A stretch of DNA of 64,000 nt from an uncultured Bacteroidales bacterium (lineage in GTDB: Bacteria; Bacteroidota; Bacteroidia; Bacteroidales; FEN-979). Under the pieces are notes generated by a model. It saw only the letters and a program-made list of their open reading frames with translations. It had not been told where the DNA came from and searched no databases. Below, one piece after another: positions 1 through 16,282 of the stretch (position 1 is the stretch's first letter; every line of letters starts with the position of its first letter). A program made the position numbers and the translations under genes. Location of the stretch: positions 16,629 through 80,628 of the forward strand of contig CAISRB010000008.1 in NCBI GenBank assembly GCA_903887775.1, given 5' to 3'.

Positions 1-497
1 AGGTCAATGGAGGCACGCATTCCTGCAAGTCCCGCACCGATCACGACGACCGCTTTGGTGGCTTTGACTTCAATGTTTGTAAGCGCTTCTGAACTTGAAA
101 CCCTGCGGATGCCCGCGCGTATCAGTCCGGCAGCTTTGTAGGATGCCTGGTCAGGATGATCAGAATGGGCCCATGAACACTGCTCACGTACGTTAACTTG
201 TACGTAATTATAGGGATTCAAACCGGCGCGTTCAGCAACACCACGAAAGGTATGCAGGTGAAGCTTGGGAGAACAGGAAGCTACGACGATACCGTCGAGC
301 TGCTTTTCCTGAATATCCCTGATCATCTCCTTCTGATTCGAATCGGCACAGGCAAACATCACGTTCTTTGAAACTGCGACGTTTTCTTCCTGGCCCACTA
401 TATCGCGAAGCTGCTCCACATCCACGTAGTCGGAGATATTACCCCCGCAATGGCAGATGTACACGCCTATTCTTTGTTTTTTCTTTTTCTCTTCCAT
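1..497 (-). CDS. HdrA-like FAD/Fe-S oxidoreductase, N-terminal part only (gene runs off the left edge of the window)
   Basis: Not in the ORF track because there is no stop in the window. Manual translation from the ATG at 495-497 gives MEEKKKKQRIGVYICHCGGNISDYVDVEQL..ASCSPKLHLHTFRG..NVREQCSWAH..KAVVVIGAGLAGMRAS. This is the Cys-rich N-terminal domain followed by a GxGxxG FAD fold, as in bacterial heterodisulfide reductase subunit A homologues. Confidence 0.7.
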   Translation of the reverse strand, partial: MEEKKKKQRIGVYICHCGGNISDYVDVEQLRDIVGQEENVAVSKNVMFACADSNQKEMIRDIQEKQLDGIVVASCSPKLHLHTFRGVAERAGLNPYNYVQVNVREQCSWAHSDHPDQASYKAAGLIRAGIRRVSSSEALTNIEVKATKAVVVIGAGLAGMRASID

Positions 498-515
498 AAT
501 TCAGATGTTTTTAAA

Positions 516-617
516 GCCATGAGCCATGAGCCATGAGCCATGAGCCATGAGCCATGAGGCATGAGGCAAGAGCCATGAGTACTTCAACATTCAACATTCG
601 TTGTTCAATATTATTCA
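516..617. repeat. Heptanucleotide tandem repeats: (GCCATGA) x9 (6 perfect, 2 degenerate, 1 perfect) at 516-578, then a TTCAACA-type 7-nt periodic tract at 583-617
   Basis: Read directly: gccatga gccatga gccatga gccatga gccatga gccatga ggcatga ggcaaga gccatga, then ttcaaca ttcaaca ttcgttg ttcaata ttattca. Confidence 0.95.
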
Positions 618-681
618 CGTAATTGTCTATTTCAATGGTGTTCATTACGGCTTCGCCGAACGACATTTAATTCATTCATTT

Positions 682-3429
682 TTAATACTGGCTCAGGTAC
701 GACGCAACTTCACATGCTGCTGCACCGGCCGACAGGATCGAATCGGGAATGTCCATAGGGGCTGCTGATGTGCCGGCTACAAAAACACCTTCCACGCTGG
801 TGCGGCTTGGATTCAGCTGAAGGTCGGTCTGTTTGATGAAATTAAACTGGTCAAGAGCAGGGCTGCCATCTTTAAACGATTTGAGTACTGTATTCTCAGG
901 CATCATGCCAACCGAAAGTACCACCAGGTCATGGGTCATTTCTTTTACCTGTCCTGTCTCCACATCCTCAATCCTCAGAACCACATCTCCTTTGCCGTCT
1001 TCCTTGCCTTTGATCCTGGCCACCTTAGCCTTTACCAGGTTTACACCCATCGATTTCGACTGCTGGTAAAATTCTTCGTAACCCTTGCCAAATGCACGTA
1101 TGTCCATATAATAGATCGTGATATCCGCCATCGGCAAGGCTCCCATTAGAAGCTGAGCCTGCTTAAGAGAATACATGCAACAGATCTGGGAACAGATGGG
1201 GTTATTGGTTGCTGCAACCGAACAGGAACGGAAGTTTTCAAGGCTTGAATCCCTGGAACCGGTGCATAATACATAGGCAATGTTACCAGGGGTTTTACCG
1301 TCACCCGGCCTGAGTACATTATTGTAGGGGCGGGTAGGGGCGATGAGCCTGTCCATCTGCATCGAATCGATCACATTCGGAAGCTGGTTGAAAGAATACT
1401 GCGGTTTGAATGCTGCATTGAACAAATTAAAGCCCGATGCGATGATGACTGAACTCGCATAGGCTTTTACAACTTCTTTTTTCTGGGAGAAATCAATGGC
1501 ATAAGCAGGGCAGGCTGTAACGCATTGGTGGCATTCGCGACAGTTGCTGCAATCGAGGCAGCGGTCGGCGCTCTGGTGCACTTCTTCCTCGGTGAAAGTG
1601 AATTCAACTTCATTGAAGTCCCTGATACGTTCGGCAACAGGCCTGACTTTTTCATCAAGCGCAGGTTTAAGTTGAATATCCGGCCTGGCGAGGACTTTCT
1701 TTTTGTCCACTGCAGGAAGTTTATCACCGAACTCGAAATCAGTCAATTCAAGTCCCTGCAGGTATTTATCCATATAAAATGCTGCCCGTTTTCCTTGTCC
1801 TGCTGCTTCAATAATAGTTGAAGAACCGCTTACCGAATCCCCGCCGGCAAATAACCAGGGGGTAGCAGTCTGCAATGTATTTTTATCGGTTTTTATCCTG
1901 CCGTCTTTTTCCAGTTCAAGTTCTTTACTGAAGGCGGATGTGGTAGGTGAGAGCCCTATGGCTTCAATAACGAAACCCACATCCTCGGTATATTCTGAAC
2001 CTTGAACTTCATTTGGTTTCCTGCGGCCGCTTGCATCAGGTTCACCCAGGGCCATCTTTATAAGGACAACCTGGCTGAGCCTGCCATCTGTGCCGGCAAA
2101 TTTTACAGGGTTCCGGAGCAACTCAAAATGTATTCCTTCTTCCTCGGCTTCATGGATTTCGTCTTTCCAGGCCGGCATTTCCTCACGGCTGCGGCGATAT
2201 ATGATGGAGACTTTTGACGCTCCTAAACGCAAGGCTGTGCGGGCTGAATCCATCGCGGTATTTCCGCCGCCGATCACCATCACCTTTTTACCAGTAAGAT
2301 CGGTCTTTAAACCTATCTTCGATTCCCTCAGGAAATCAAGGCAGGAAACGACGCCTTTAAGATCTGAACCGGGAATGTTCATCTTGCTTGTTTTATGTGT
2401 TCCAACTGCGACGAACACGGCATCATAATTTTGTTCTTTGATTTTGTGAAGGCTGCCCACAGGGTGGCTGCATTCTATCTCTACCCCAAGGGAGGTGATG
2501 TTCTCAATGTCCCTGTCCACGACGGTATTCGGGAGCCGGTATTCGGGAAGCGTAAGTTTTAACATCCCGCCTGCCGAAGGAGCGGCTTCAAAGATCTTCA
2601 CCTTATGGCCGGCCAGGGCCAGGTGGTAAGCGGCAGTGAGGCCGGCCGGACCGGAACCCACTATGGCAACTTTCTTCCCGCTGTTCTTTTCGATAAGTCT
2701 TGCAGGCGCTTCAGGGTATTTAATATAGTAGTCTTCTGCAAAAAACCGTTTTATCCTGCGGATGTCGACTGTGGCTTCGAGACTGGCGCGGGTGCATTCC
2801 CCCTGGCAGGGTGAATAGCAGGCACGGCCAAGGCTTCCCGGGATAGGAATGTCCTCCATATGCAGATGCATGGCCTCCTCGTACTGGCCGTTCCTTACGA
2901 GAGAAATGTAACCATAAGGCTTTACTCCTCCGGGACAGGCTGCGATGCAAGGGGCTGAGGTATCCTGTCTCTCGATAACGGCAATCCTCGGATTGGCAAG
3001 GCTAAAAGGAATGTAGGCGACTTTGCGTCCTGCAAGATGGGCGTTGTATTCATCAGATCTTACTTCGGGACAAGCCATTTCACATTCCTGGCAGCCGGTG
3101 CAGGCTTCGGGCTTTACATACCTTGGATTTTTATTGATCTCAAGATGAAAGCCTTTTTCGTTCCGTTTTATGCTGTCAATTTCGGAATTTAATAAAAGTG
3201 TAATGTTTGAGTGCCTGGCTGTCTCCGACATCTTTGGTGTTGTAATACAAGCGGCGCAGTCAAGGGTAGGGAAGACCTTGCTCAGCTGTATCATCTTGCC
3301 GCCAATGGATAAACCTTTCTCGACAAGCAATACCTTATAATCCATGTTAGCAAGGGATAAGGCCGCTTCCTGCCCTGCAATACCGCCCCCGATGACCATT
3401 ACATCGTACTTCTTTTCTTCTGTGTTCAT
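682..3429 (-). CDS. HdrA-like flavoprotein with an inserted GltD/NfnB/SudA-like NAD(P)H:FAD module (915 aa)
   Basis: The N-terminus is YDVMVIGGGIAGQEAA..LDCAACITTPKM (HdrA-type). A ferredoxin motif CTGCQECEMACP follows. An internal module KKVAIVGSGPAGLTAAYHLA..KKVMVIGGGNTAMDSART..FAGGD resembles the glutamate synthase small subunit. A second ferredoxin motif is CLDCSNCRECHQCVTACP, and the C-terminus is HdrA-like. Confidence 0.8.
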   Translation of the reverse strand: MNTEEKKYDVMVIGGGIAGQEAALSLANMDYKVLLVEKGLSIGGKMIQLSKVFPTLDCAACITTPKMSETARHSNITLLLNSEIDSIKRNEKGFHLEINKNPRYVKPEACTGCQECEMACPEVRSDEYNAHLAGRKVAYIPFSLANPRIAVIERQDTSAPCIAACPGGVKPYGYISLVRNGQYEEAMHLHMEDIPIPGSLGRACYSPCQGECTRASLEATVDIRRIKRFFAEDYYIKYPEAPARLIEKNSGKKVAIVGSGPAGLTAAYHLALAGHKVKIFEAAPSAGGMLKLTLPEYRLPNTVVDRDIENITSLGVEIECSHPVGSLHKIKEQNYDAVFVAVGTHKTSKMNIPGSDLKGVVSCLDFLRESKIGLKTDLTGKKVMVIGGGNTAMDSARTALRLGASKVSIIYRRSREEMPAWKDEIHEAEEEGIHFELLRNPVKFAGTDGRLSQVVLIKMALGEPDASGRRKPNEVQGSEYTEDVGFVIEAIGLSPTTSAFSKELELEKDGRIKTDKNTLQTATPWLFAGGDSVSGSSTIIEAAGQGKRAAFYMDKYLQGLELTDFEFGDKLPAVDKKKVLARPDIQLKPALDEKVRPVAERIRDFNEVEFTFTEEEVHQSADRCLDCSNCRECHQCVTACPAYAIDFSQKKEVVKAYASSVIIASGFNLFNAAFKPQYSFNQLPNVIDSMQMDRLIAPTRPYNNVLRPGDGKTPGNIAYVLCTGSRDSSLENFRSCSVAATNNPICSQICCMYSLKQAQLLMGALPMADITIYYMDIRAFGKGYEEFYQQSKSMGVNLVKAKVARIKGKEDGKGDVVLRIEDVETGQVKEMTHDLVVLSVGMMPENTVLKSFKDGSPALDQFNFIKQTDLQLNPSRTSVEGVFVAGTSAAPMDIPDSILSAGAAACEVASYLSQY

Positions 3430-3513
3430 CTGTTAATAATTTGATTTCAGTGGTCAGATGGAATGCCCAAAACTATCGTTCCAGTTTAGGATTAACTTTT
3501 TCCATTGGGCATT

Positions 3514-3909
3514 TCATGAAAGTTCAGCTAAGATTTTTGTGAAATTGGCCATATGGCTGGCAAAGGGTTCGGCGCATACAGAACAAATTGCTGCCATCCT
3601 TATCCGCTTGGGGCTTATTCCTTTTGCAGTCATCTGCTTCTGGCATTCTTCGATGATCTTATTGGTAAACTCAGGGCAGCGTGAGCTGTATGAGCATTCA
3701 TGCCCGTCGGCAGCGATGAACACACCGTCGAAGCCCTGTTCGAAAGCACGCATGATCCAGCGGGGCTTGATGCCCGATGAACATGGCAGGCTTATCGTAT
3801 ATACCGTAGGCGAATAGTGGATCTTTCGTAAGCCTGCCTGGTCAATTCCGGGATCAGAGATCTTGTCGGTCGAAAACACCAGTATCCTTGGCGATTTTTT
3901 TGTTTCCAT
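3514..3909 (-). CDS. MvhD/FlpD-like hydrogenase iron-sulfur subunit (electron-transfer partner of HdrA)
   Basis: 131 aa. RILVFSTDKIS..SLPCSSGIKPRWIMRAFEQGFDGVFIAADGHEC and the C-terminal CSVC pattern are typical of methyl-viologen-reducing hydrogenase delta-subunit family proteins. Confidence 0.75.
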   Translation of the reverse strand: METKKSPRILVFSTDKISDPGIDQAGLRKIHYSPTVYTISLPCSSGIKPRWIMRAFEQGFDGVFIAADGHECSYSSRCPEFTNKIIEECQKQMTAKGISPKRIRMAAICSVCAEPFASHMANFTKILAELS

Positions 3910-4137
3910 ATGGTAATCTTTTTTATTCCTTTCGGACCATTATCCGCTGAATGCAGAGGATCCGGAGGCCGGGATTTGCCCCGGAGTTCATGCCGTTAAT
4001 TTATTCAGGTTCATTTATTTCTTAATGTGGTAAAACCGTGAACAGGTAAACCACTCCCCGGAAGACCTTTCACGGGTCTTCAAATCAGCTTGTTGAATCA
4101 GTAGTTTTATTTGGAACAGATCTTCCGGGGCTGAGAT

Positions 4138-4389
4138 TTATGCTTTCTTTAGAAATAATCTTGAATAGCTGTCTTCTTCAACGATCCCTAAAAATTCATG
4201 GGTCATTTTATTACACCATTTGGGAATGTCATTCTTGGTTCCTTCATCCGAAGAGTAGATCTCCATGATCTCTCCTGATTCAATCTCCCCGATGGCTTTC
4301 TTTGCGGCCAATAATGGGCCCGGACAAGCGGTTCCGCGTGCATCAACGATGGTGTTCGATTTGAGGTTTTTTAATTCTTCTGTGCTCAT
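4138..4389 (-). CDS. tusA: TusA/SirA-family sulfur carrier protein
   Basis: 83 aa with the DARGTACPGPLL (CPxP) active-site motif. Confidence 0.85.
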   Translation of the reverse strand: MSTEELKNLKSNTIVDARGTACPGPLLAAKKAIGEIESGEIMEIYSSDEGTKNDIPKWCNKMTHEFLGIVEEDSYSRLFLKKA

Positions 4390-4477
4390 TGTGTTTTCTC
4401 CTATTTTAATTTTCCGGGAATGTTCCGGGACGATCCGCCCGAAACCCGGAGCAGGTTGCCCTGCAGTTTATAATTGA

Positions 4478-5023
4478 TTATATGAATAATTGAATTTTAC
4501 TTTCTGCTGCATCTGTAAGGAAAGTGGCCACTCCGCAAATGGTCATATGCGGATAATCTATCATCTCTTCCTTTTTAAACCCCATCAGGTTCATCGACAT
4601 TTCGCAAATATTGATCTCGACACCCAGTTCACCTGCTGTCTTCAGCATTTCTTCAATGGAAGCGACCTTGTGTTTCTTCATGATCCCTTTCATCATGGCT
4701 GTACCCATTCCACCCATGTTCATATTGGAAAGTTTCAGTTTCGGGCTCCCTTTCGGAAGCATCATGCCAAACATTTTCTCAATGAAGTTCTTGCCTTTGC
4801 CGTTTTTTGCAGGATCACGCAATGCGGAAATCGCCCAGAAAGTAAAGAAGAGTTTAACTTTCATGTCGAAAGCGGCTGCGCCTGTTGCAATGATCAAAGC
4901 AGCAAGGATCTTATCCAAGTCGCCTGAAAAAACCACCATCGAAAGCTGGTCCTTTGTGCCTTCCTTAAGCTGGTTTAATTGTTCTTTTAAATCAGCAATC
5001 TGATTCTCGAGTTCTGTGCCCAT
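4478..5023 (-). CDS. DsrE/DsrF/DsrH-like (DsrE2-type) sulfur-relay family protein
   Basis: 181 aa. SMVVFSGDLDKILAALIIATGAAAFDMKVKLFFTFWAI plus the conserved ICEMSMNLMGFKKEEM Cys region. It is a paralog of 9242-9742. Confidence 0.7.
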   Translation of the reverse strand: MGTELENQIADLKEQLNQLKEGTKDQLSMVVFSGDLDKILAALIIATGAAAFDMKVKLFFTFWAISALRDPAKNGKGKNFIEKMFGMMLPKGSPKLKLSNMNMGGMGTAMMKGIMKKHKVASIEEMLKTAGELGVEINICEMSMNLMGFKKEEMIDYPHMTICGVATFLTDAAESKIQLFI

Positions 5024-5066
5024 AGAAATATTATTAAATGTAAAGATGTAGATAAATAGATGTGTA

Positions 5067-5074
5067 CAAAGGTA
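5067..5074 (-). promoter_or_regulatory. Candidate Bacteroidota -7 promoter box (TACCTTTG on the minus strand) upstream of the dsrE2-tusA genes
   Basis: Matches the TAnnTTTG consensus. It lies 44 nt upstream of the ATG at 5023 and about 65 nt downstream of the palindrome at 5129-5144. Confidence 0.3.
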
Positions 5075-5128
5075 AAAGTCAGCCTAACATTAAAGCGCTT
5101 TAGTATCAGGAAATAAATCTCAGTAAGA

Positions 5129-5144
5129 TGTGATAATTATCACA
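5129..5144. promoter_or_regulatory. Perfect 16-bp Crp/Fnr-type palindrome TGTGATAATTATCACA
   Basis: Read directly. It lies in the 129-bp spacer between the cysteine desulfurase-like gene and dsrE2. It fits TGTGA-N6-TCACA and also GTGAT-N4-ATCAC. Confidence 0.6.
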
Positions 5145-5152
5145 AAAGATTG

Positions 5153-6673
5153 TCAGGAAAGTGTAAGCCACTGATTCACATCCGGGGCAGCGGGATGCTG
5201 AAGGTTGTGCCGGAATTCATTGGTATGCTTATTATAAGAGTAATCCCTGCTCCATTCTTTATGGTTTCTGCTTATCCGGCGCAATGCGTCGGCAATGTAG
5301 ACCACATCTGTATCGGTCATAGTCGGATGAAGTGAGAGCCTTACCCAGCCTGGTTTTGCGGAAAGATCACCATTGGAGATGCTGTCGGTTATCCTTTTTG
5401 ACTTTTCAAAGCTCACATCCAGCAGGTAGTGCCCGTAAGTACCGGCACAGGCACATCCGCCCCTTACCTGTATGCCAAACCTGTCGCTCAGGAGTGAAAC
5501 TACCAGGTTATAATGTATGGAATCGATATAAAATGAAATTACTCCCAGCCTTTCTGTGGCATTATCGGCGAGGACATGCAAACCCGGGATTGAAGAAAAC
5601 TCGCTGAACGCCAGCTTCAACAGCTGATCTTCACGCTTATGGATCTTTGCAACATCCATCTGATCTTTTAAATCCATACTGAGCGCGGCACGCATCGCCT
5701 GGAGAAAGCCGGGAGTTCCACCGTCTTCCCGGCCCTCGATATCGTCAATGAATTTATACTCTCCCCAGGGATTGGTCCAGTCGACCGTCCCTCCCCCGGG
5801 CTGATCGGGAACCCGGTTATGATAAAGTTCCGAATTGAATACAAGAACCCCTGAGGACCCGGGTCCTCCCAGAAATTTGTGTGGGGAAAAATATACAGCA
5901 TCCAGGTCCTGCAAAGGATTACCGGGATGCATATTGATATCATCGTAGGGAGCCGACGCTGCGTAATCCACGAATACTTTTCCTCCGTATTGATGCATCA
6001 GCGCCGCCATTTCATGAATGGGGGTCCTTACTCCGGTAACATTGGAACAAGCCGTGAAAGATCCGATCAGCGGTTTTTCCTTGCTGTATAACTTCAGTGC
6101 ATCTTCAAGGTGATTCAGATCAAAGCGCAGATCCTTGCCTGGCTTTACCACTACTACATCAGCTACCGTCTCATACCATGAAGTATGATTCGAGTGATGT
6201 TCCATATGCGTGATGAAAACCACAGGTTTGTCTTTATCTTTCATGCATTTCCCGTCCGAAAGTATGCCGCATTGTTTCAATCCCAGTAACCTTTGGAACT
6301 TTACAACAGCCCCGGTCATCCCGAAGCCGGTCGTCAGGATAACATCCCCTGATCCGGCATTAAGATGTTCCTTTATTTTTCGATGTGACTGCTGATAGGC
6401 CCGGGTCATAAGCCTGCCGTTCTCGCTGGTTTCAGTATGAGTGTTCCCGACAAATGGCCCGATCTCCTCAATGATCTTCTTTTCTATCGGCCGGTATAAG
6501 CGCCCGCTTGCGATCCAGTCGGCATAGAGCATCCTTTGCCTTCCGTAAGGAGTCAGATAGGTCTGGTCATGACCTATGGTATCCCTGCGGAACGTCTCGA
6601 ACCAGGATTCCAGCTTGTCGGTTTCACGGAGCTCATGGACAGCAGCAATAGTCTGCGGCTCGGCTGACTTCAT
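5153..6673 (-). CDS. Class-V aminotransferase-fold PLP enzyme, cysteine desulfurase / selenocysteine lyase-like
   Basis: 506 aa. SPHKFLGGPGSSGVLVF contains the PLP lysine and VRGGCACAGTYG is a group-II-like active-site Cys loop. Confidence 0.7.
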   Translation of the reverse strand: MKSAEPQTIAAVHELRETDKLESWFETFRRDTIGHDQTYLTPYGRQRMLYADWIASGRLYRPIEKKIIEEIGPFVGNTHTETSENGRLMTRAYQQSHRKIKEHLNAGSGDVILTTGFGMTGAVVKFQRLLGLKQCGILSDGKCMKDKDKPVVFITHMEHHSNHTSWYETVADVVVVKPGKDLRFDLNHLEDALKLYSKEKPLIGSFTACSNVTGVRTPIHEMAALMHQYGGKVFVDYAASAPYDDINMHPGNPLQDLDAVYFSPHKFLGGPGSSGVLVFNSELYHNRVPDQPGGGTVDWTNPWGEYKFIDDIEGREDGGTPGFLQAMRAALSMDLKDQMDVAKIHKREDQLLKLAFSEFSSIPGLHVLADNATERLGVISFYIDSIHYNLVVSLLSDRFGIQVRGGCACAGTYGHYLLDVSFEKSKRITDSISNGDLSAKPGWVRLSLHPTMTDTDVVYIADALRRISRNHKEWSRDYSYNKHTNEFRHNLQHPAAPDVNQWLTLS

Positions 6674-6974
6674 TTTCGAGGTAGTTTACAATTGCATTAT
6701 GGATGATCCGTTCATTACTTGAGATCATTGAAATGCCCTGACTGAGCATAGTGGTTTTCAGATCCCCGTTGACAGGTAAGGATAATACTGCAGAACAATC
6801 TTTCAGGGCGGAAAGGTATACCTGGGGAGCCTTCTTATCATAAGCAACCTGGTTCCAGACCAGTTCCTCCCCGGTTACTTTACCCATTTCAATATTCAGG
6901 ATAAGGAAACCTTTGGCCTCCTCAAATGATGAGGCTATCATCAATCCGTCGTTCGTTGGAACAGCTGCTTTCAT
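6633..6974 (-). CDS. NifX/NifB-like (dinitrogenase FeMo-cofactor-binding fold) small protein with a C-terminal CCCP tail
   Basis: 113 aa. MKAAVPTNDGLMIASSFEEAKGFLILNIEMGKV..LKDCSAVLSL..QGISMI matches the family pattern. It ends in ..ADYCCCP. Confidence 0.55.
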   Translation of the reverse strand: MKAAVPTNDGLMIASSFEEAKGFLILNIEMGKVTGEELVWNQVAYDKKAPQVYLSALKDCSAVLSLPVNGDLKTTMLSQGISMISSNERIIHNAIVNYLENEVSRAADYCCCP

Positions 6975-7167
6975 AGGCCTTTTCTTTTATTCAGGCTCCG
7001 TAATCGATTCAAATGAACGGAAGTCTGAAATCATGAGGGCAAAATTACCAAGACCGTGTGCAGTTTGGGAAGGTTTGGGCGTGATACTCGATCCACGAAA
7101 ATGTGAAAATGGCAACGAACAAATATTGCCACTTACACATAAAAATGTGTCGAAAAACATCAGTAAA

Positions 7168-7183
7168 TGTGATATAGATCACA
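7168..7183. promoter_or_regulatory. Crp/Fnr-type palindrome TGTGATATAGATCACA (perfect 6+6 arms)
   Basis: Read directly. It lies in the divergent 266-bp spacer, 58 nt upstream of the Crp/Fnr gene ATG (7241). Confidence 0.6.
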
Positions 7184-7240
7184 TGAAGTCAGTGAAATTT
7201 TGCGCATCTTTGTGGGCAAAATTCTAAGTTTCGAAGACGA

Positions 7241-7942
7241 ATGTTCCCGGATCCCCTCCCTCTGAAAACCCACTGCCGCGAATGCAAGGTGAAATCCTGC
7301 GCTGCAGCTGTGCTTAATGCAGTCGAGCTTGACAAAGTTAATGAAAACAGCAGGGAAGCCGAATTCAAAAAAGGAGATATCATCATTCATGAAGGTTCTT
7401 TGAATTCCAATATCATTTACCTTAAGTCGGGACTGGTCAAAGAATACGTCAGGACATCCAGCCAGAAAGAACAGATCCTTCAGATCGTAAAGAAATTCAG
7501 CTACCTCGGATTGCCTTCACTCTTTGGTGACAGGGTGAATCATTATTCTTATGCAGCCCTGGAAGACATCAGGGTCTGTTATATAGACATCAGCATTTTC
7601 AATAAACTGATCAGGGAGAATGGCGAATTCGCATACCAGATCCTGGTTTCGGTATCGCGCGACAGCCTCAATAATTTTCACAGGTTTATGAGCCAGTCTC
7701 AGAAAAAGACCTATGGCAAGGTGGCCGATGCCCTGTTATATTTCTCAAGGATTATTTATGAGGACCGGGAGTTCGACATTCCTTTCACACGACAGGAACT
7801 GGCCGACCTGATAGGGATCTCCAGGGAAAGTGCAACCAGGGTATTGCTGAAGTTAAAAGATGACGGGATCCTTTCGGTAGATGAGCGTCACGTCCAGATC
7901 AACGACCTCGATCTTCTGCATCAGATAAGCAGGAACGGATAA
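7241..7942 (+). CDS. Crp/Fnr-family transcriptional regulator with an FNR-like Cys pattern
   Basis: 233 aa with a cNMP-binding-like beta-roll and a C-terminal HTH (RQELADLIGISRESATRVL). Cysteines are at 12, 15, 20 and 113. Confidence 0.85.
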   Translation: MFPDPLPLKTHCRECKVKSCAAAVLNAVELDKVNENSREAEFKKGDIIIHEGSLNSNIIYLKSGLVKEYVRTSSQKEQILQIVKKFSYLGLPSLFGDRVNHYSYAALEDIRVCYIDISIFNKLIRENGEFAYQILVSVSRDSLNNFHRFMSQSQKKTYGKVADALLYFSRIIYEDREFDIPFTRQELADLIGISRESATRVLLKLKDDGILSVDERHVQINDLDLLHQISRNG

Positions 7943-9196
7943 TCAGGAACCTGACAGAAGAAACTTACCCACCTTTTCAAAGATCATTTCAAAGTTCCTG
8001 TCGATCAGACCGGCTTCTGAAACATTCAGGGGAAATGGATTTTCGTGGGTATATTTGTGTTCAAAGTCGAATTCCTCAACAGGGACAGGGATATCGCGGA
8101 AAGCTCCCTGCAGGGTGTTGATGATCTCAAATGAAGAGATCACAGTGTCTTTTTTCAGGCTTATGGCATAAAAGTCTTTTGCATACCTGCGGAAGAGTCC
8201 TTCCCTGAAATCCCTCATCTTCGCATAGTCGAGCATAGCTCTGAAGGTCCTGCCTTCAGGATGGTCTCCTTCAATAAAATGCTTCAGCAGGGGATCCTTT
8301 TTCAGGAAGCTGTCGAAATGTTCAACGAGATACGAATACAATGCCACGTTGGCTTCACTGTCGAGGATGTATTTGCTTACAGGTGATAGCCTGTTAAAGA
8401 CCGCCCCGCTGCAGAACAGGCAGACTTTAGTCCGCCCGAAATAATCTTTATAATTGGTGAGTTTAAGGATCTCTGCAAGCAATCCGCCTATCGAATACGC
8501 AAAAATATTGAACGAGAAGCCGGGATCTATTTGTTCGTGTTTCCCTTCCCGGCATTCCTCAATGAACTGTATCACGTCGTAATATGTCTGCAGTCCCGAC
8601 CAGATAAACCTTTGCGGCATCGAATGCAACCTCATGCTTATGGCCACATTGGTAAGGGTTGAATGGATGATATTCGGGAACCTTTGTTTCCGGGCTTCGC
8701 TGCTGGCGAACATCTTTCGTTTCTCGCTCCATTGGGAAGGACCTCGCTGCATATGGAAGGCAATCGGGTACATGACGACCATGCTGTTTGTATGAAGGCA
8801 GATGGCTCTCGCCCAGGGAAGATACTTGCTCCAGTTCTTCTCATTAAAGCCATGAAACAGCAGCGTGAAGTTCTTAGCCTTCCCGCTTCCCGCAGGCCTC
8901 ATCAGATGTATCGTGAAATGCCTGTTTTCTTTGACGAAAGCATCCGTGATATGGATGTCGTCGTGCAATACTCCTATGTCATTATAATATGAAACAGGAT
9001 AGGAGATATCCTTGTCGTGCTTTTTGCAGTGGTAGTGCTGGTTGCCCGGAAGCAATCCGTGCGACATGGAACTGAATTCAGTGCGGCTGATCACCATCCC
9101 GTCGAATTCCACTTCAGGCCGGCCGGCCAAAAGCGCCTCCTGCAGGCCATGGTAGCTGTTGAAATAATCCATCAAACAAAGGTACAAAAAGGTCAA
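7943..9196 (-). CDS. Hypothetical protein, possible alpha/beta-hydrolase fold
   Basis: 417 aa. The only recognisable motif is a nucleophile-elbow-like FAYSIGGLLAE (A-x-S-x-G). I cannot assign a family from memory. The start could instead be the second Met, at 9172. Confidence 0.35.
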   Translation of the reverse strand: MTFLYLCLMDYFNSYHGLQEALLAGRPEVEFDGMVISRTEFSSMSHGLLPGNQHYHCKKHDKDISYPVSYYNDIGVLHDDIHITDAFVKENRHFTIHLMRPAGSGKAKNFTLLFHGFNEKNWSKYLPWARAICLHTNSMVVMYPIAFHMQRGPSQWSEKRKMFASSEARKQRFPNIIHSTLTNVAISMRLHSMPQRFIWSGLQTYYDVIQFIEECREGKHEQIDPGFSFNIFAYSIGGLLAEILKLTNYKDYFGRTKVCLFCSGAVFNRLSPVSKYILDSEANVALYSYLVEHFDSFLKKDPLLKHFIEGDHPEGRTFRAMLDYAKMRDFREGLFRRYAKDFYAISLKKDTVISSFEIINTLQGAFRDIPVPVEEFDFEHKYTHENPFPLNVSEAGLIDRNFEMIFEKVGKFLLSGS

Positions 9197-9241
9197 ACAT
9201 TATAGACCATGAAGAAGGCTATGATTTATTTACCCTGTACC

Positions 9242-9742
9242 TTACGTAAAGATGATCTGGGTTTGGATCCCGCCGCACTTTTCATAGAAGTCGCCTACGG
9301 TGAGCACGTCCTTTACTCCTTCCCAAAGATCTTCCTTCTTAAGTTTGAACATGTCCATTGCCAGTTTGCAGGCGTATATTTCACCACCGCCGGCTTCTAT
9401 CATTTCAAGGAATTCTTTTACGGGAGGGATGTCAAGCGCTTCCATCTGGCTTTTCATCATCAACGACACACCGGCTTCTACTCCGGGAAGCATGCCAAGA
9501 AGAGTCGGGAACGGCAGCCCGCCGGGCATACGCATTGCAGGATTGCCAACGGTGCCTGTATGAAGGCTGTTCATTTGTTTTTTAGTAATGGCATCCAGTC
9601 CGAAGAAGGTAAAAAAGATCTTCGTCTCAATACCTTCCATCACGGCTCCGTTGCTCATTACCAGGGTTGCATATACGTCTTCAATCGTTCCTTTAGCGCA
9701 TATGATGCAGACTTTTTTCAGGGGAAATTCTTCTTTTGCCAT
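9242..9742 (-). CDS. DsrE/DsrF/DsrH-like (DsrE2-type) sulfur-relay family protein
   Basis: 166 aa. KKVCIICAKGTIEDVYATLVMSNGAVMEGIETKIFFTFFGL plus IYACKLAMDMFKLKKEDL. It is a paralog of 4478-5023. Confidence 0.7.
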   Translation of the reverse strand: MAKEEFPLKKVCIICAKGTIEDVYATLVMSNGAVMEGIETKIFFTFFGLDAITKKQMNSLHTGTVGNPAMRMPGGLPFPTLLGMLPGVEAGVSLMMKSQMEALDIPPVKEFLEMIEAGGGEIYACKLAMDMFKLKKEDLWEGVKDVLTVGDFYEKCGGIQTQIIFT

Positions 9743-9769
9743 TGTTTGTGTTTTTTAGTGCTGTGAATA

Positions 9770-10081
9770 TTACACGCATGAAGCGGGTTTTGGAATACCG
9801 GATATTTTAGCTGCTTTTTTCATGGGAGCTCCGGGAAAAAGCTGGTAGAATCCTTTTATATCAATAAAACCACTGGTCCCCACTGACCTGATAGTGAGGC
9901 TTTCACCTTTTGCCTGCCTTTCACGGAGGTATTCAATTACCTGATAGTGTTTCTCGGTAAGCTCAATACCTTCTTCTTTTGCAATCTCCTTTGCGATGTC
10001 TTTAGTCCATTGTGAACGATCGGTCATGTACCCGTCATCGTTTACATCCACGCTGATTCCAGCAAAAACTTTCTGTGCCAT
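9770..10081 (-). CDS. TusE/DsrC-family sulfur-relay protein (single C-terminal Cys)
   Basis: 103 aa. DDGYMTDRSQWTKDIA..LTEKHYQVIEYLR..GIPKPASCV is the characteristic C-terminal arm ending in CV. Confidence 0.8.
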   Translation of the reverse strand: MAQKVFAGISVDVNDDGYMTDRSQWTKDIAKEIAKEEGIELTEKHYQVIEYLRERQAKGESLTIRSVGTSGFIDIKGFYQLFPGAPMKKAAKISGIPKPASCV

Positions 10082-10132
10082 AATGTTGTGATTAATTTTT
10101 GTTATTACTAATGCTAAATTACAATTTATTAA

Positions 10133-10192
10133 AAGCGAAATGGCGAAAGGCGAAATGGTGAAATTTCGCTTTTCACTTTGAGCTTTTCGCTA
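10133..10192. repeat. GCGAAA-unit imperfect palindrome (member of a dispersed intergenic repeat family)
   Basis: Sequence is aagcgaaatggcgaaaggcgaaatggtgaaa|tttcgcttttcactttgagcttttcgc. The right arm overlaps the last codons and stop of the 10173-10844 gene. Confidence 0.8.
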
Positions 10193-10844
10193 TTTGTTGT
10201 ACAAGCCTGAGCGAGTATGATAAGGACTGCCTCACTTCCGGCGAGTTTAGTTGTTTAAACAATCCGAAAAGTGATTTATTGTCAAGTTTTTCATCGGGTT
10301 TTACTTCGGCAAGTGCAAGAGTCATATTATTCAGGCCTTTCATAAGTGCAGGGTCTGAAAGATTACGTACGATACCTGCAATATTCTCAAGGTTGTTCTG
10401 AAGCCTGATCAGATCTTCCCTTGTGAACAACTGTATCCATTTGTCGACAAAGTTACCGAGTTCACTTATATATTCAAAGTACCCTTTCCTGTCGAGCTCG
10501 TTCATTTTATTCACCGCATCAAGGCCGACCTGGTGCAGTATGGGAGTGACATCCTTCATGAAATCCTTGGCACTTTCCATCATCTCGAACATTTCGTGGA
10601 AGGTGCCGAGGTTCTGAAGTACTTTGATCATAAGTCCCGGCAGGTCCACATGATCGAGTTCAACCTGAGCATTTTCAAGCATTCCGGAGGTATGACGCAC
10701 AACATCTTTAATAACAATGCCCGCATCCTCGACAAAATCGTCGATTTCTTCCCTTTTCTGGTTCTGTAGTGAAACGTATTCCAGGACCATGTCCATTTTC
10801 TGATGGAGCTCATCCAATTGCTCCTGTAATTCTTTTTCAGCCAT
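10173..10844 (-). CDS. DUF1641-like protein (usual partner of SQR-like flavoproteins)
   Basis: 223 aa, helical and acidic. Its position immediately downstream of an SQR-like oxidoreductase matches the common DUF1641 neighbourhood. The family assignment is from memory only. Confidence 0.5.
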   Translation of the reverse strand: MAEKELQEQLDELHQKMDMVLEYVSLQNQKREEIDDFVEDAGIVIKDVVRHTSGMLENAQVELDHVDLPGLMIKVLQNLGTFHEMFEMMESAKDFMKDVTPILHQVGLDAVNKMNELDRKGYFEYISELGNFVDKWIQLFTREDLIRLQNNLENIAGIVRNLSDPALMKGLNNMTLALAEVKPDEKLDNKSLFGLFKQLNSPEVRQSLSYSLRLVQQIAKSSK

Positions 10845-10854
10845 AATCCTGGGT

Positions 10855-12084
10855 TTACATTTTTTTACCTGCCATTGTCATCTTCGAATCGATAGGCATT
10901 TCTTTTCCTTTTAAAAGGATATGCCAGTAGATCCATCGGAACATCAGTTTGCCGTAATGGTTCGTCCGGCTTTCTTTCAGAAGTCCGAAAGGGCCTATTC
11001 CCGGGAATGGGAATGAGCCCGGGAGGGGTTCAGTGTCGTAATTGAAATCAATCAGAGCGCCTTTGCCGAATCCTGTTTCGATGTAACAGTTTGAATGGCC
11101 GTCAAATTTATCGGTTAGCGGCCTGTTTTCGATGGCACACATAAGGTTCTCGGTTAACACATCAGCCTGGAAATGAACCACTGAGCCGGCTTTCGAAGTC
11201 GGAAAATTACCGGCATCACCGATCACGAAGACGTTCGGGAACTGAACCTGCTGAAGAGTATATTTATCGGCTTTTACAAAGTCCATTTCATCACCGAGCC
11301 CGCTGCGCCCGATCACAGGATCTCCTTTGTGTACGGGGATCGTGATCAAACAGTCAAAAGGAATTTCCCTTTCATCGTACGATACAATGGCTTTCTTTTC
11401 ATTGTCGACCCTCTCCATGTAAAAGTCAGGGACAATGTTAATGTTTTTCTGGACCAGCAGTTCTCCCAGGACCTTCGAAGCCCTTGGCTTTGTGAAGGCT
11501 CCGGAAAGAGGGGTCACATAAGTAATGTTGATATCATTCCTGAGACCGCGTTCAACAAAGAACGCGTCGGCGAACATAACGAATTCCAAAGGAGCTACCG
11601 GGCATTTGATCGGCATATCAGCAATGTTCAGAACAAGCTCTTTGCCTTTCCAGGTTTTAAAGAAGCCGGCCAGGGCCGTGGCTCCTTCGTAAGTGTAGAA
11701 GTCAAAGATCTGTTTATGCCATAGCGGCCCTTTCAAACCGGGAGTCTCTTCAGGAGCAGTGCGTGTACCGGTGGCAATGATCAGAAAATCGTACCGCAGA
11801 TTCGTGCCGTCTTTCAGATGGACCGAATTATTTGGTGCATCAATTCGCTCGATCTCCTGAAAGATCATATTGACCCCGAATGGGAGGAAGTTTGTTTTTG
11901 GTTTCACAACATCATGCTTTGTGTAATAACCAAAGGGCATAAAGAGAAAACCCGGTTGATAATAATGGGTTTTACATTGGTCGACGATGGTGATATCCCA
12001 TTCATCGCGCTCAAGAAGGTTACGCATTTTGTTAGCCATAATGGTACCGCCGGTACCAGCGCCAAGGATCAGTAGTTTTTTCAT
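10855..12084 (-). CDS. NAD(P)/FAD-dependent oxidoreductase, sulfide:quinone oxidoreductase-like
   Basis: 409 aa. KKLLILGAGTGGTIMANKM is the FAD fold. MPIKCPVAPLEF and GHSNCYIETG are candidate redox Cys motifs. FVIGDAG is also present. Confidence 0.75.
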   Translation of the reverse strand: MKKLLILGAGTGGTIMANKMRNLLERDEWDITIVDQCKTHYYQPGFLFMPFGYYTKHDVVKPKTNFLPFGVNMIFQEIERIDAPNNSVHLKDGTNLRYDFLIIATGTRTAPEETPGLKGPLWHKQIFDFYTYEGATALAGFFKTWKGKELVLNIADMPIKCPVAPLEFVMFADAFFVERGLRNDINITYVTPLSGAFTKPRASKVLGELLVQKNINIVPDFYMERVDNEKKAIVSYDEREIPFDCLITIPVHKGDPVIGRSGLGDEMDFVKADKYTLQQVQFPNVFVIGDAGNFPTSKAGSVVHFQADVLTENLMCAIENRPLTDKFDGHSNCYIETGFGKGALIDFNYDTEPLPGSFPFPGIGPFGLLKESRTNHYGKLMFRWIYWHILLKGKEMPIDSKMTMAGKKM

Positions 12085-12203
12085 TATCTAAGTAAATATA
12101 GGGGTTCTGTGCAAATATCGACAAAGGTATATATATTTATTTGGTGATACCAAAGCGATTTATAATTTTTTTATAAATTTATATTCAGACTATTTCCAAA
12201 TAC

Positions 12204-12219
12204 TGTTAATGGATTCACA
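12204..12219. promoter_or_regulatory. Weaker Crp/Fnr-like site TGTTAATGGATTCACA upstream of the SQR-like gene
   Basis: One mismatch to TGTGA-N6-TCACA. It lies about 120 nt upstream of the ATG at 12084. Confidence 0.3.
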
Positions 12220-12310
12220 ATGAAAAATAAGTATGAAAATTCGGGTAAGCCCAAGCCCTTGGTTCCGCAGCAAGCTGGGGGGAATTTACATGGAGGGATA
12301 AAACGGATGT

Positions 12311-12360
12311 AAATAAAAATGGCATCGGGGGCATGCATAATAGCTGCACAATGATGCCAT
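12311..12360 (-). terminator. Putative intrinsic terminator downstream of tatA
   Basis: On the minus strand, ATGGCATC..(26 nt)..GATGCCAT is followed by TTTTTATTT. Confidence 0.4.
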
Positions 12361-12381
12361 ATTAAAGAGGGGGGCGGGAAA

Positions 12382-12606
12382 TTATTTTTTCTCTTCCGGC
12401 TTGCTTGTGGTTTCGTCTTTTTTGACGTCGGATTTCAGCTCATCTTCAATGCCGGCCATGCCGTCTTTAAAGCTTTTTACTCCTTTACCGATACCTTTCA
12501 TAAGTTCAGGGATCTTCGATCCGCCGAAAAGCAGCAAAATAATCAGGGCAATGAAGATGATTTCCTGAGTGCCCAAACCGAATATCAATAAAATACCTAA
12601 GGTCAT
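12382..12606 (-). CDS. tatA: Sec-independent translocase protein TatA/E
   Basis: [50 protein letters not shown] chose the internal Met (ATG at 12604-12606) over the 91-aa track ORF because it gives the canonical TatA N-terminus. Confidence 0.8.
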
Positions 12607-12660
12607 GATTTCCTGGATTTGAAAGACAAAAGTAAGCAAAGGACCGGATAAATACACATT

Positions 12661-13866
12661 TTATTTTTGTAAAAACATGCAGGCGTCACCATAACTGAGA
12701 AAACGGTAGCCTTTTGCCAACGCATGGGAATAGGCATTCTTCCACTGATCCCCCACGAAGGCAGCGATCAGCAACAGCAGCGTGCTTTTTGGCATATGGA
12801 AGTTGGTTATCAAAGCATTCGTAAACCTGAACGTATAGCCTGGAACGATGATAAGGCTTGTGCTTCCGTCAAATTCATTCAACCCCAGCTTTTCGAGGTA
12901 AGAGATGAGGGCATCCAGCGATTCCTTCGCAGGCGGAAGACTGGAAGAATCTGTTTCATAAGGATCCCATTGGTTCACTTTATTTATTTCAGACCCTGGA
13001 TTTCTGATGGCCTTTACACCCAGCCAGTAGAGGCTTTCAAGTGTCCTTGCAGAGGTTGTGCCTACGGCGATCACAAGACCTTCGAGTGAATCTCTTAAAT
13101 TCCGGAGGGTGGAAAGTTTAACAGTAATGCTTTCACTATGCATGACATGCTCGCGGATGTCGTCAACACTTAAAGGTTTGAATGTTCCCAGGCCCACATG
13201 CAGGGTGACTTTTTCCTCCCTGCAATGCCGGGACCTGAGGCGTTCAAGAAGATCCTTTGTAAAGTGCAGTCCTGCAGTGGGGGCAGCAACCGAACCTTCA
13301 TGCTGGGCATAAACGGTCTGGTAACGCCTGACGTCTTCATCATCAGAATCCCTTATAATATAAGGCGGCAGCGGAACCTGTCCGGCAACGGTAAGGATTT
13401 CTGAAAAGGAAAAGGAAGAAGGTGTCCAGCTGAACTCAATTTCAAAACAACCGTCGCCGAGACTTGCCTTTCTCTCTGCCTTCAGCAAACCACCCTTTTC
13501 ATCCAGGGATTTGATAAGGGCTCCGTTTTTCCATTTTTTTGAATTGCCCACGAGGCAGATCCACCTGCATTCCGACTGCTGCTGAAAAGCAAGCTGAAGA
13601 TCCCGGGAAGGGGATGCCGGTTCAAGGCAAAAGATCTCGATGCTGACGCCATTGGGTTTTGCAAACATCAGCCTGGCTCTGACCACCCTGGTATCGTTAA
13701 AAACCAGAAGGCTTCCTTCCGGGATCAGCTTGTCAAGATCAGAAAAAATGTGATCGGTGATCAGGTCATCCCGTAACAACAGCAGCCGTGATGCATCCCT
13801 GACGCCAAGGGGTCTTTGGGCGATGCGGTCCGCAGGAAGTTCATAAGTATAATCTGCAATATTCAC
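12661..13866 (-). CDS. queA: S-adenosylmethionine:tRNA ribosyltransferase-isomerase
   Basis: MNIADYTYELPADRIAQRPL..RLLLL..HFTKDLL..HVGLGTF..AVGTTS. The start is GTG and overlaps the upstream stop by 1 nt. Confidence 0.9.
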   Translation of the reverse strand: MNIADYTYELPADRIAQRPLGVRDASRLLLLRDDLITDHIFSDLDKLIPEGSLLVFNDTRVVRARLMFAKPNGVSIEIFCLEPASPSRDLQLAFQQQSECRWICLVGNSKKWKNGALIKSLDEKGGLLKAERKASLGDGCFEIEFSWTPSSFSFSEILTVAGQVPLPPYIIRDSDDEDVRRYQTVYAQHEGSVAAPTAGLHFTKDLLERLRSRHCREEKVTLHVGLGTFKPLSVDDIREHVMHSESITVKLSTLRNLRDSLEGLVIAVGTTSARTLESLYWLGVKAIRNPGSEINKVNQWDPYETDSSSLPPAKESLDALISYLEKLGLNEFDGSTSLIIVPGYTFRFTNALITNFHMPKSTLLLLIAAFVGDQWKNAYSHALAKGYRFLSYGDACMFLQK

Positions 13867-15275: not shown

Positions 15276-15365
15276 TGTACCTTTGGTTTAAAATTAAGGC
15301 GCAAAAGTAGAAAAAAATCATAAGCGAACGGCACAAACGTGCACATCGAATGCCGTTAAAAAGTG

Positions 15366-15373
15366 TATTTTTG
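15366..15373 (+). promoter_or_regulatory. Candidate -7 promoter box TATTTTTG upstream of pssA
   Basis: Matches TAnnTTTG. It would place the transcription start at about the 5' end of the hairpin element 15379-15447. Confidence 0.3.
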
Positions 15374-15378
15374 TTATT

Positions 15379-15447: not shown

Positions 15448-15467
15448 TAAAAAACAAATTATTAAAA

Positions 15468-16205: not shown

Positions 16206-16208
16206 AAG

Positions 16209-16278: not shown

Positions 16279-16282
16279 AAAC

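Follow-up and report, generated by a model that had tools for sequence, protein, structure and literature searches.

Two conserved operons of Bacteroidota, one for a sulfide:quinone oxidoreductase of type III and one for a predicted Qmo-like complex, found side by side in an uncultured Bacteroidales bacterium

The DUF1641 proteins ForE, HucM and Ncp form hydrophobic tubes which carry menaquinone from the membrane to peripheral quinone reductases and back (PMC13524794; PMC8808070). An HdrA with GltD inserted at its ferredoxin domain was named type III in 2025 on the basis of nine archaeal sequences (PMC12054007), and in the literature on sulfur oxidisers the function of the DsrE2A-type protein is still unclear (PMC11094781). 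Here we describe positions 1-12084 of a 64-kb stretch of DNA from an uncultured Bacteroidales bacterium (the whole stretch is called the window), in which genes for a sulfide:quinone oxidoreductase (SQR), for sulfur-carrier proteins and for Hdr-like flavoproteins lie together. The region consists of two separately conserved operons, which are adjacent here and usually unlinked elsewhere. We propose, with a probability of roughly 45%, that together they constitute a menaquinone-coupled persulfide pathway on the cytoplasmic side of the membrane.

Families were assigned by profile searches against Pfam and NCBIfam, and solved relatives were taken from sequence matches to structure databases. A search anchored on the SQR, using one genome per species, gave more than 588 matching stretches, and the best 80 of these were used for locus analysis; nearly all of them belong to Bacteroidota (for example Draconibacterium, Saccharicrinis, Carboxylicivirga, Lentimicrobiaceae, Rikenellaceae and Flavobacteriaceae). 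A second search in metagenomes, anchored on the HdrA::GltD fusion, gave 85 Hdr loci, about 80 of them independent metagenome loci. Neighbourhoods were inspected over 10 kb on either side of the anchor gene. Invariant cysteines were read from alignments of 77-85 orthologues and in-frame TGA codons were sought in about 165 loci. Individual loci are cited by their L numbers where needed.

Two operons and their regulators

Thirteen open reading frames (ORFs) occupy the region, twelve of them on the minus strand, as had been counted in an earlier note made from the sequence alone (Table 1). In order of transcription, the first minus-strand run holds the genes for SQR, the DUF1641 protein, the TusE/DsrC-like protein, DsrE2b and a DUF6051 protein, the last being the gene which that note had left unnamed. 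The second run holds the NifX-like, SufS-like, DsrE2a, TusA, MvhD and HdrA::GltD genes followed by a second hdrA, which is cut by coordinate 1. The regulator gene on the plus strand lies tail to tail with the DUF6051 gene and is divergent from the NifX-like gene.

Operon 1 is formed by the type III SQR, the DUF1641 protein, a one-cysteine TusE/DsrC-like protein and DsrE2b. Colinear genes were observed in 80 (SQR), 77 (DUF1641), 73 (one-cysteine DsrC) and 68 (DsrE2b) of the 80 SQR loci, the shortfall of DsrE2b being due in part to contig ends. The DUF1641 gene is directly downstream of the SQR gene in 77 of the 80 loci, and an FNR paralogue is found divergent upstream of SQR in 54 of the 80. 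Operon 2 is formed by DsrE2a, TusA, MvhD, HdrA::GltD, HdrA and a QmoC-like protein, and its six-gene core is colinear wherever a locus is long enough to show it (73-85 of the 85 Hdr loci; DsrE2a 73, TusA 74, MvhD 80). The divergent regulator gene is present at 58 of these loci, and the pair of NifX-like and SufS-like genes heads the operon in about 17. As each of the two gene orders was met again in about 80 independent loci, the grouping of the genes goes beyond chance.

The earlier note had taken the region to be one combined island, exceptional in Bacteroidota. A single 13-gene island is ruled out by the synteny of the SQR and Hdr loci, as the two operons are neighbours in a few lineages only, and each of them is instead typical of Bacteroidota with about 80 loci. 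The neighbourhood conservation which the note had proposed to check was thus found for each operon across Bacteroidota, with the two mostly apart. Its statement that no described system has this combination stands, as we found no published description of either operon in the open-access full-text papers searched, and both are widely conserved in Bacteroidota.

Apart from the regulator gene, the window has no gene of the CRP/FNR family. Residues Cys12, Cys15, Cys20 and Cys113 of the regulator are conserved in the Hdr-linked clade, and both regulator clades have an N-terminal cysteine cluster together with a central cysteine. With 69.6 bits against 228 for NF008365 the protein is not in the Fnr subfamily by score, and the FNR paralogues of operons 1 and 2 are only 30-35% identical to each other. 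The palindromes at 5129 and 7168 have the form TGTGAT-N4-ATCACA; the 64 kb contain only five such matches, and these two and the box at 12204 make up three of them. Of 63 non-redundant loci, 44 have a perfect TGTGA-N6-TCACA 98-143 bp (171 bp in one case) upstream of DsrE2a, which is an enrichment of 300-fold, and TGT[GT]A-N6-T[CA]ACA is enriched 75-fold in the stretch of 300 bp upstream of SQR (78 loci). The canonical FNR box TTGAT-N4-ATCAA was tried and rejected, having 5 matches against 5.2 expected in 64 kb and none in the promoters of the region. The four conserved cysteines and the strongly enriched boxes support FNR-type control as a prediction. The FNR regulator which the earlier note placed in the middle of its island does belong to the CRP/FNR family and is divergent, and it is part of the Hdr operon rather than of a single unit. 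A generic promoter and terminator scan gave counts no higher than the shuffled expectation, and zero RNA families of Rfam were found in positions 1-13000 at E <=0.1.

Table 1. Features of the two operons (positions refer to the window except where a locus is named)
Feature	Position	Strand	Basis or remark
Type III sulfide:quinone oxidoreductase, 409 residues	10855-12084	-	NF049943, 628.8 bits against cutoff 525, full-length match
DUF1641-superfamily protein (by profile), 223 residues, all-helical	10173-10844	-	Pfam DUF1641, E 1.6e-3, sub-threshold
TusE/DsrC-family protein, single C-terminal Cys (...KPASCV)	9770-10081	-	Pfam DsrC, E 8e-26; TIGR03342, 74.7 bits
DsrE2b, 166 residues, carrier of the SQR operon	9242-9742	-	DrsE_2, E 1e-27
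DUF6051 protein, 417 residues	7943-9196	-	PF19519, E 2e-106; end of the SQR operon
FNR-type CRP-family regulator	7241-7942	+	cNMP_binding and HTH_Crp_2
NifX/NifB-C-like small protein, CCCP end	6633-6974	-	Nitro_FeMo-Co PF02579, E 5e-4, weak
SufS-like class V pyridoxal phosphate (PLP) enzyme, 506 residues, putative cysteine desulfurase	5153-6673	-	Aminotran_5, E 7e-44
DsrE2a, 181 residues, carrier of the Hdr/Qmo-like operon	4478-5023	-	DrsE_2 (PF13686), E 5e-51
TusA, 83 residues, CPGP active-site Cys	4138-4389	-	PF01206, E 1e-21
MvhD/FlpD-type [2Fe-2S] protein, 131 residues	3514-3909	-	PF02662, E 5e-27
QmoA-like HdrA with NfnB/GltD-type NADPH/FAD/[4Fe-4S] insert, 915 residues	682-3429	-	Domain layout
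Second hdrA, 5' 165 codons	1-497	-	NF040770 HdrA2 N-terminus, E 5e-55; QmoB-like without MvhD domain
QmoC-like Fe-S/membrane protein, 371 residues	L001 14926-16041, outside the window		NF038018 full length, E 3e-56; follows second hdrA
Candidate operator, perfect palindrome TGTGATATAGATCACA	7168-7183		FNR/NifX-like intergenic; L003 and L004 have this box in the same position
Candidate operator, perfect palindrome TGTGATAATTATCACA	5129-5144		About 106-121 bp upstream of the DsrE2a start codon
Candidate operator, one-mismatch CRP-type box TGTTAATGGATTCACA	12204-12219		About 120-135 bp upstream of the SQR start codon

Proteins of the two operons

The profile searches confirm every family which the earlier note had named. 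Its SQR-like flavoprotein passes the NCBIfam cutoff as a type III SQR, starting with the flavin adenine dinucleotide (FAD) Rossmann motif GAGTGG at residues 8-13. The best solved relative is human SQOR (8dhk, E 3e-48), with which both redox cysteines align; C161 and C333 are invariant in all 85 orthologues. Type II SQOR requires an acceptor for the sulfane sulfur. Signal peptides were found on none of the four operon-1 proteins, and the active site of SQR must therefore face the cytoplasm, the side of its partners.

The NCBIfam model passed by the SQR carries the name 'selenoprotein subtype', yet the protein is without selenocysteine, so that automatic annotation would mislabel it. The name raises the question of whether the system handles selenium (selenide or selenopersulfide) instead of sulfur, as SufS-like enzymes can also act as selenocysteine lyases and TusA is related to YedF. 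The SQR reading frame is uninterrupted and no stop codon falls inside the alignment of 85 loci; at conserved cysteines, in-frame TGA was found in none of about 165 loci, for which the selenoprotein reading of the SQR was rejected. Genes selD, selA, selB and yedE occur neither in the window nor at conserved positions. Selenium handling is thus extremely improbable.

The DUF1641 protein of the window scores 18.7 bits against a threshold of 21. PF07849 (DUF1641) is matched by 38 of 41 of its orthologues (best E 4e-9), the orthologue profile matches the ForE1/YjgD structure 8rqz_A (E 9e-6, 118 positions), and homologues are annotated by the Joint Genome Institute (JGI) as 'YjgD (DUF1641 family)'. 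Membership of the superfamily is thereby rescued at the family level, as judged from sequence profiles, and the DUF1641 partner proposed in the earlier note holds at that level, with the window protein itself sub-threshold. The role, which the note missed, is putatively that of a quinone-conduit scaffold of SQR. In the 5.27-Mb genome L168 an insertion sequence element (HTH_Tnp_1 and rve, 12002-13365) was observed between the DUF1641 and DsrC-like genes of the SQR operon.

All four carrier assignments of the earlier note (TusA, two DsrE2-like proteins and the TusE/DsrC-like protein) are confirmed at the family level, with active-site cysteines invariant in 77-85 orthologues, although calling them a complete set was an overstatement. 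The window's TusE/DsrC-like protein ends in ...KKAAKISGIPKPASCV, where CysA, the penultimate residue, is present and CysB, which in DsrC stands about 11 residues upstream, is not. Its orthologues all end in KPxSC[V/I/M] with an invariant penultimate cysteine, and CysB was found in none of about 60 sequence variants. As the second cysteine is missing, the protein can hold a persulfide and cannot form a trisulfide of the DsrC type. Its score with the TusE equivalog NF008562 is 60.7 bits against a cutoff of 191. Residue C125 of DsrE2b is invariant in 79 of 79 orthologues and C140 of DsrE2a in 77 of 77, and the window's two DsrE2 proteins score 70.7 and 96.6 bits with the equivalog NF047629 (cutoff 210). 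In TusA, C22 (within ACPGP) and C59 are invariant, and the score with NF001423 is 52 bits against 78.

The class V cysteine desulfurase-like enzyme seen earlier is likewise confirmed. It aligns with SufS 5j8q (E 4e-26) at the PLP lysine (SPHK) and at the catalytic cysteine (GGCAC); C209, C407 and C409 are invariant, and the enzyme is divergent (TIGR01979, 132 against a cutoff of 475). Its gene heads operon 2 in 17 loci and stands directly behind DsrE2b in L005, L021 and L029. The NifX-like gene overlaps the desulfurase gene by 41 nt. Its CCCP tail, to which the earlier note had drawn attention, is kept in five lineages (one variant ends in LCCP), and the family match is sub-threshold. The NifX-like CCCP protein is likely to be the sulfur acceptor of the SufS-like desulfurase.

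A biosynthetic mobilisation of sulfur for tRNA thiolation, molybdenum cofactor or special Fe-S/metal clusters, by a relay like IscS-TusA-TusBCD-TusE, would find a desulfurase, TusA, DsrE-family and TusE-like proteins all present here, as well as a NifX-like protein from a cluster-binding family. The context speaks otherwise. MnmA, MoaD/MoeB and other thiolation enzymes are at no conserved position, with neither tusBCD nor mnmA genes at any such position around operon 1, and the DsrE proteins are of the DrsE_2 type instead of TusBCD. The TusE-like gene is tied to SQR and the putative quinone scaffold, the desulfurase occurs in only 17 of 85 Hdr loci, and a membrane-bound Qmo-like complex has no role in such relays. 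The tRNA-thiolation alternative of the earlier note is therefore without contextual support at conserved positions, and we consider biosynthetic mobilisation very improbable.

For operon 2, the MvhD protein, the HdrA::GltD fusion and the second HdrA-like gene of the earlier note are confirmed as to family. Five cysteines are invariant in MvhD. The fusion starts at the FAD motif without an N-terminal or C-terminal HdrA domain, and the insertion lies inside the ferredoxin domain, with flanks which match HdrA 5odc. NfnB-type modules bind NADPH. The best solved relatives of the GltD insert are StnC (8oh5_C), 9bov_A, NfnA (9n5u) and NfnB (4ylf/5jca), at 270-380 bits, and its NAD(P) motif GGGNTA is of the NADPH type by a rule quoted in PMC12054007. 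The full-length second HdrA of 663 residues was seen in contigs with an identical HdrA::GltD protein (assemblies of the European Nucleotide Archive; GCA_026391335.1). It has the N-terminal, FAD and C-terminal ferredoxin domains of methanogen HdrA and is without the inserted ferredoxin domain, judging by the gap between two matched stretches.

The same contigs gave the continuation past coordinate 1 that the earlier note had asked for, and it is a QmoC-like gene which follows rather than HdrB/HdrC. This protein has two CxxCxxCxxxC motifs, eight invariant Fe-S cysteines and about six hydrophobic segments; H232, H337, H355 and one methionine are also invariant. It matches Fer4_8 and, weakly, Nitrate_red_gam, and reaches 191.5 bits against the equivalog cutoff of 300 (NF038018). 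By the domain layouts of QmoA and QmoB, the operon-2 set presumably corresponds to a subunit like QmoA, a QmoB split into HdrA and MvhD, and QmoC. The Hdr part is accordingly predicted from its domains to be a Qmo-like, menaquinone-linked membrane complex with a built-in NADPH site, and nothing indicates the ferredoxin link of the earlier framing.

ORFs with a CCG domain (HdrB/C) were found neither in the window nor in the operon-2 core, and HdrB/C genes beyond coordinate 1 were rejected, as the contigs show the QmoC-like gene and then a toxin-antitoxin/variable region. The absence of HdrB/C, rhodanese and YeeE/YedE from the window, as stated earlier, agrees with tblastn over the 64 kb; DsrAB, also named there, had no direct search. 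The same tblastn gave no homologues of the YeeE, rhodanese, PhsA, DsrM/K-like and thioredoxin proteins of the kinds found in related loci. TusA and DsrE2 are, as read from gene order, strictly co-transcribed with the HdrA/MvhD genes at every locus examined, and since they are always together, a functional link between the carriers and the flavoprotein module is well founded.

Several further features were noticed around operon 2. The two hdrA genes are separated by a spacer of 184 bp which contains a heptanucleotide tandem repeat CATGGCT (515-579, about nine copies); this element upstream of the second hdrA may be prone to slippage. Nine copies occur in the window, L001 and L002 and four in L088, a strain with an HdrA::GltD of about 97% identity, whereas more distant relatives have none. 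Behind the QmoC-like gene of L001 is a DUF6922/AbiEii toxin-antitoxin-like pair (16102-16787), and strains with identical Hdr proteins vary downstream of the QmoC-like gene, with a methyltransferase, AAA_14/DUF4143, an MmeI-type enzyme or a transposase. Past QmoC in L083 (15894-19611) and L085 (15916-20330) are a second NifX-like protein, an N-terminally extended thioredoxin and an ArsF-family protein, and further on TauE fragments, DUF302, OsmC and a YgaP-like membrane protein, which form a wider sulfur/redox-stress neighbourhood.

Loci that belong to the window's species (L001, L002, L088 and L094) are the only ones in which the DUF6051 gene was seen, and it was rejected as a system component for this reason; it is a lineage-specific passenger outside the conserved system. 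Its protein carries an AYSIGG serine-hydrolase-like motif. On the other side, the SQR operon is flanked by genes for TatA, QueA, an alginate-export-like porin, an ABC ATPase, DUF5686 and a SIS/CBS protein (12382-13866 and 13866-20567), and by a CDP-alcohol phosphatidyltransferase assigned by position from L168. As the flanking gene order equals that of L168, the SQR operon sits in a conserved chromosomal context. Elsewhere in the window (33327-42979) are two minus-strand pairs of large ORFs (1052 and 470 residues; 1110 and 484 residues), of SusC/SusD-like sizes.

A possible pathway for protein-bound sulfur

In the menaquinone-coupled pathway, SQR would oxidise H2S and reduce menaquinone, with the DUF1641 protein serving quinone exchange in the way that other peripheral quinone reductases are served by ForE, HucM and Ncp. 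The sulfane sulfur would pass from SQR to DsrE2b and the TusE-like protein instead of being released as polysulfide. TusA and DsrE2a would deliver sulfane sulfur, coming from operon 1 or from cysteine through the SufS-like/NifX-like CCCP pair, to the Qmo-like complex, which would connect NADPH, the carrier sulfur and the menaquinone pool. We take the likeliest net reaction to be an NADPH-dependent reductive release of the carrier sulfur as H2S, with electrons passing between the QmoC arm and the menaquinone pool through flavin-based bifurcation or confurcation. Both operons would be driven from the CRP/FNR-type operator boxes, and the pair would act as a sulfane-sulfur and redox valve under anoxia. 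We infer the transfer from SQR to the carriers, the conduit role of the DUF1641 protein and the use of the carriers as substrates by the Qmo-like complex; the direction of electron flow is proposed with lower confidence than the general model. The carrier relay tied to HdrA/MvhD under FNR, as proposed in the earlier note, keeps its link between relay and module and its FNR-type control, and loses the single unit and the ferredoxin.

Several observations weigh against this pathway. The Hdr core was found within 10 kb of the SQR gene in 0 of the 80 SQR loci (L003-L082), and the SQR operon is near only 4-5 of the 85 Hdr loci. The operon-2 subunits encoded in the window have no HdrB/CCG domain and no recognisable site for S-S chemistry at which sulfur bound to TusA or DsrE2 could be reduced. 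The AlphaFold2 monomer of the DUF1641 protein is all-helical with a pLDDT of 56 and has no Foldseek match in the PDB. The DUF1641 gene is absent in lineages L076 and L085, where SQR is followed directly by the DsrC-like gene, and the scaffold is therefore dispensable or replaced there. Furthermore, oxidation by SQR and then reduction by NADPH of the same sulfur would be futile unless there is another source of sulfur or the electrons are shuttled.

The synteny counts would suit two independent systems which are neighbours by accident, operon 1 for sulfide detoxification (from SQR to protein acceptors) and operon 2 as an NADPH:menaquinone (possibly ferredoxin) oxidoreductase of Qmo/Fix-like kind with its own purpose for TusA and DsrE2. 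Each operon having its own FNR paralogue fits this, as does the genome L168, in which both operons are present apart and the SQR operon keeps its QueA and TatA context. Adjacency is nevertheless recurrent, in at least three lineages and in two orientations. The operons adjoin in the window's species (L001, L002, L088 and L094) and in L090, an approximately 85% identical lineage; in L085 they are 8 kb apart in opposite orientation; and at least three further cases have both on a shared contig or in a shared genome. The SufS-like gene is joined to one operon or to the other, the box architecture is common to both, and both have paralogous DsrE2 carriers. Several independent observations thus say that the operons are connected despite their usual separation, because of the adjacency, the shared SufS-like gene, the paralogous FNR regulators and the shared type of box, and we regard full independence as rather unlikely.

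Related loci carry additional genes. Four genes are inserted between the SufS-like gene and DsrE2a of operon 2 in the nearest lineages (L004, L089, L090 and L105-L107); these genes encode a two-cysteine DsrC, a 210-residue HmcE/TmcC-like membrane protein, a 428-residue TmcB/HmcF/DsrK-like CCG protein and a second desulfurase. Beside the FNR-SQR unit, two YeeE/YedE halves and a rhodanese were observed in 11-14 SQR loci (for example L016 1130-2896), and a PhsA-like molybdopterin oxidoreductase with a Tat signal lies near it in 12-13 (for example L015 1141-4139). Both the genes inserted in operon 2 and the YeeE/rhodanese genes suggest a traffic of sulfane sulfur coupled to the quinone pool, and carriers of sulfane sulfur recur in company with redox modules linked to quinone. 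A small Rieske protein was also seen near the SQR unit in about ten loci.

Such genes would also be expected if the system served a respiration of sulfur or cysteine, where the sulfane sulfur of the carriers (from S0, polysulfide, thiosulfate, or cysteine through the SufS-like enzyme) is the terminal acceptor. The Qmo-like complex would then pass electrons from NADPH to menaquinone, possibly by bifurcation, and a quinol-oxidising module would reduce the carrier. The electron donor of DsrMKJOP is menaquinol, and the inserted genes supply a DsrMK-like pair with a two-cysteine DsrC. FNR-type control suits an anaerobic function as well, and a reference listed in PMC13293266 (PNAS 2024) names DsrMKJOP as the terminal reductase complex in the anaerobic respiration of sulfate. 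The window itself, however, is without the two-cysteine DsrC and the DsrMK-like module, and SQR is expected to work in the oxidising direction on general thermodynamic grounds. We consider a respiration of this kind decidedly unlikely.

A bolder form of the pathway, which we hold to be unlikely, is that DsrE2-TusA-MvhD-HdrA::NfnB-HdrA-QmoC is a flavin-based electron-bifurcating membrane enzyme of a new type for protein-bound sulfur (a persulfide or thiosulfonate on TusA/DsrE2), which couples NADPH oxidation to menaquinone reduction and, with an SQR-DUF1641 complex, gives Bacteroidota a sulfur-based respiration. If this were true, a protein-bound sulfur species would take the place of the heterodisulfide in Hdr and of adenosine phosphosulfate (APS) in Qmo-Apr, and supposedly fermentative Bacteroidota would gain an unrecognised respiration based on S0, sulfide or cysteine.

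Anaerobic Bacteroidota are among the most abundant degraders of sulfidic sediments, anoxic lakes, wetlands and digesters, and are usually treated as fermenters without dissimilatory sulfur metabolism. Two conserved operons under predicted FNR-type control suggest that they actively process sulfide and sulfane sulfur. In addition, TusA and DsrE2 gain a partner and a testable role, the HdrA with a GltD insert gains a bacterial and widespread example attached to a membrane anchor, and the quinone-conduit idea for DUF1641 (published in 2026) would be extended to SQR and to Gram-negative bacteria. As the SQR operon has cultured carriers in Draconibacterium and Carboxylicivirga, experiments on it are feasible.

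Comparison with known systems

Like QmoABC of sulfate reducers and green sulfur bacteria, operon 2 encodes a pair of HdrA-like flavoproteins, a module of the MvhD type and a QmoC with an HdrC-like 2x[4Fe-4S] part and a NarI-like membrane domain. It differs in that the QmoC-like protein is below the equivalog cutoff (191 against 300), MvhD is separate and the QmoA-like subunit has an NfnB/GltD insert. Furthermore, the operon is always preceded by dsrE2 and tusA, and no apr or sat gene was found in the 85 Hdr loci. By its domains the complex would be Qmo-like, yet it fails Qmo membership by score and by apr linkage.

Methanogen HdrA (5odc) comes closest to the HdrA parts, with 287 and 381 bits, an MvhD protein accompanies them as in methanogens, and the insert architecture of HdrA::GltD is shared with the archaeal type III HdrA (PMC12054007). 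Unlike both, operon 2 has no HdrB/HdrC (CCG) or hydrogenase, is anchored by QmoC, and is bacterial and widespread. NfnAB and StnABC provide the best solved relatives of the inserted module, but here the module is embedded in HdrA and no NfnA-like or StnAB partner is encoded. In sHdr systems, tusA and dsrE2 are most often linked to the hdrA-containing cluster among shdr clusters (PMC11094781), as they are here to operon 2. However, operon 2 is without sHdrB1B2C1C2, LbpA and lipoate genes, and in its HdrA parts the likeness to sHdrA (6tjr) is much smaller than that to methanogen HdrA.

The combination of DsrC with DsrMK/HmcEF/TmcBC is approached in the operon 2 of relatives only (L004, L089, L090 and L105-L107); it is not in the window, its scores all fall short of the equivalog cutoffs, and DsrAB was seen at no locus. 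With the IscS-TusA-TusBCD-TusE relay the system has in common a desulfurase, TusA, DsrE-fold proteins and a one-cysteine TusE-like protein. It departs from that relay in having DrsE_2 proteins rather than TusBCD, scores below the equivalog cutoffs, no MnmA and a redox- and quinone-linked context.

For operon 1, one likeness is with the DUF1641 conduits (Ndh-Ncp, ForCE and Huc), where a small helical DUF1641 protein is encoded right after a quinone-reducing enzyme of the NDH-2/SQR fold. The predicted partner here is SQR, which is reported as a partner in neither PMC13524794 nor PMC8808070, and the hosts are Gram-negative Bacteroidota instead of Bacillota or Actinobacteria. Another likeness is with the cst operon. 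In Staphylococcus aureus this operon has SQR, the multidomain sulfurtransferase CstA (with rhodanese, TusA-like and DsrE-like domains), CstB and CstR, and likewise combines SQR, persulfide acceptors of the TusA/DsrE type and a dedicated regulator. Operon 1 differs in having no persulfide dioxygenase, separate carriers which include a TusE-like protein, an FNR-type regulator and a DUF1641 partner. By analogy, operon 1 would thus resemble both the cst logic and the Ndh-Ncp/ForCE logic and be equal to neither.

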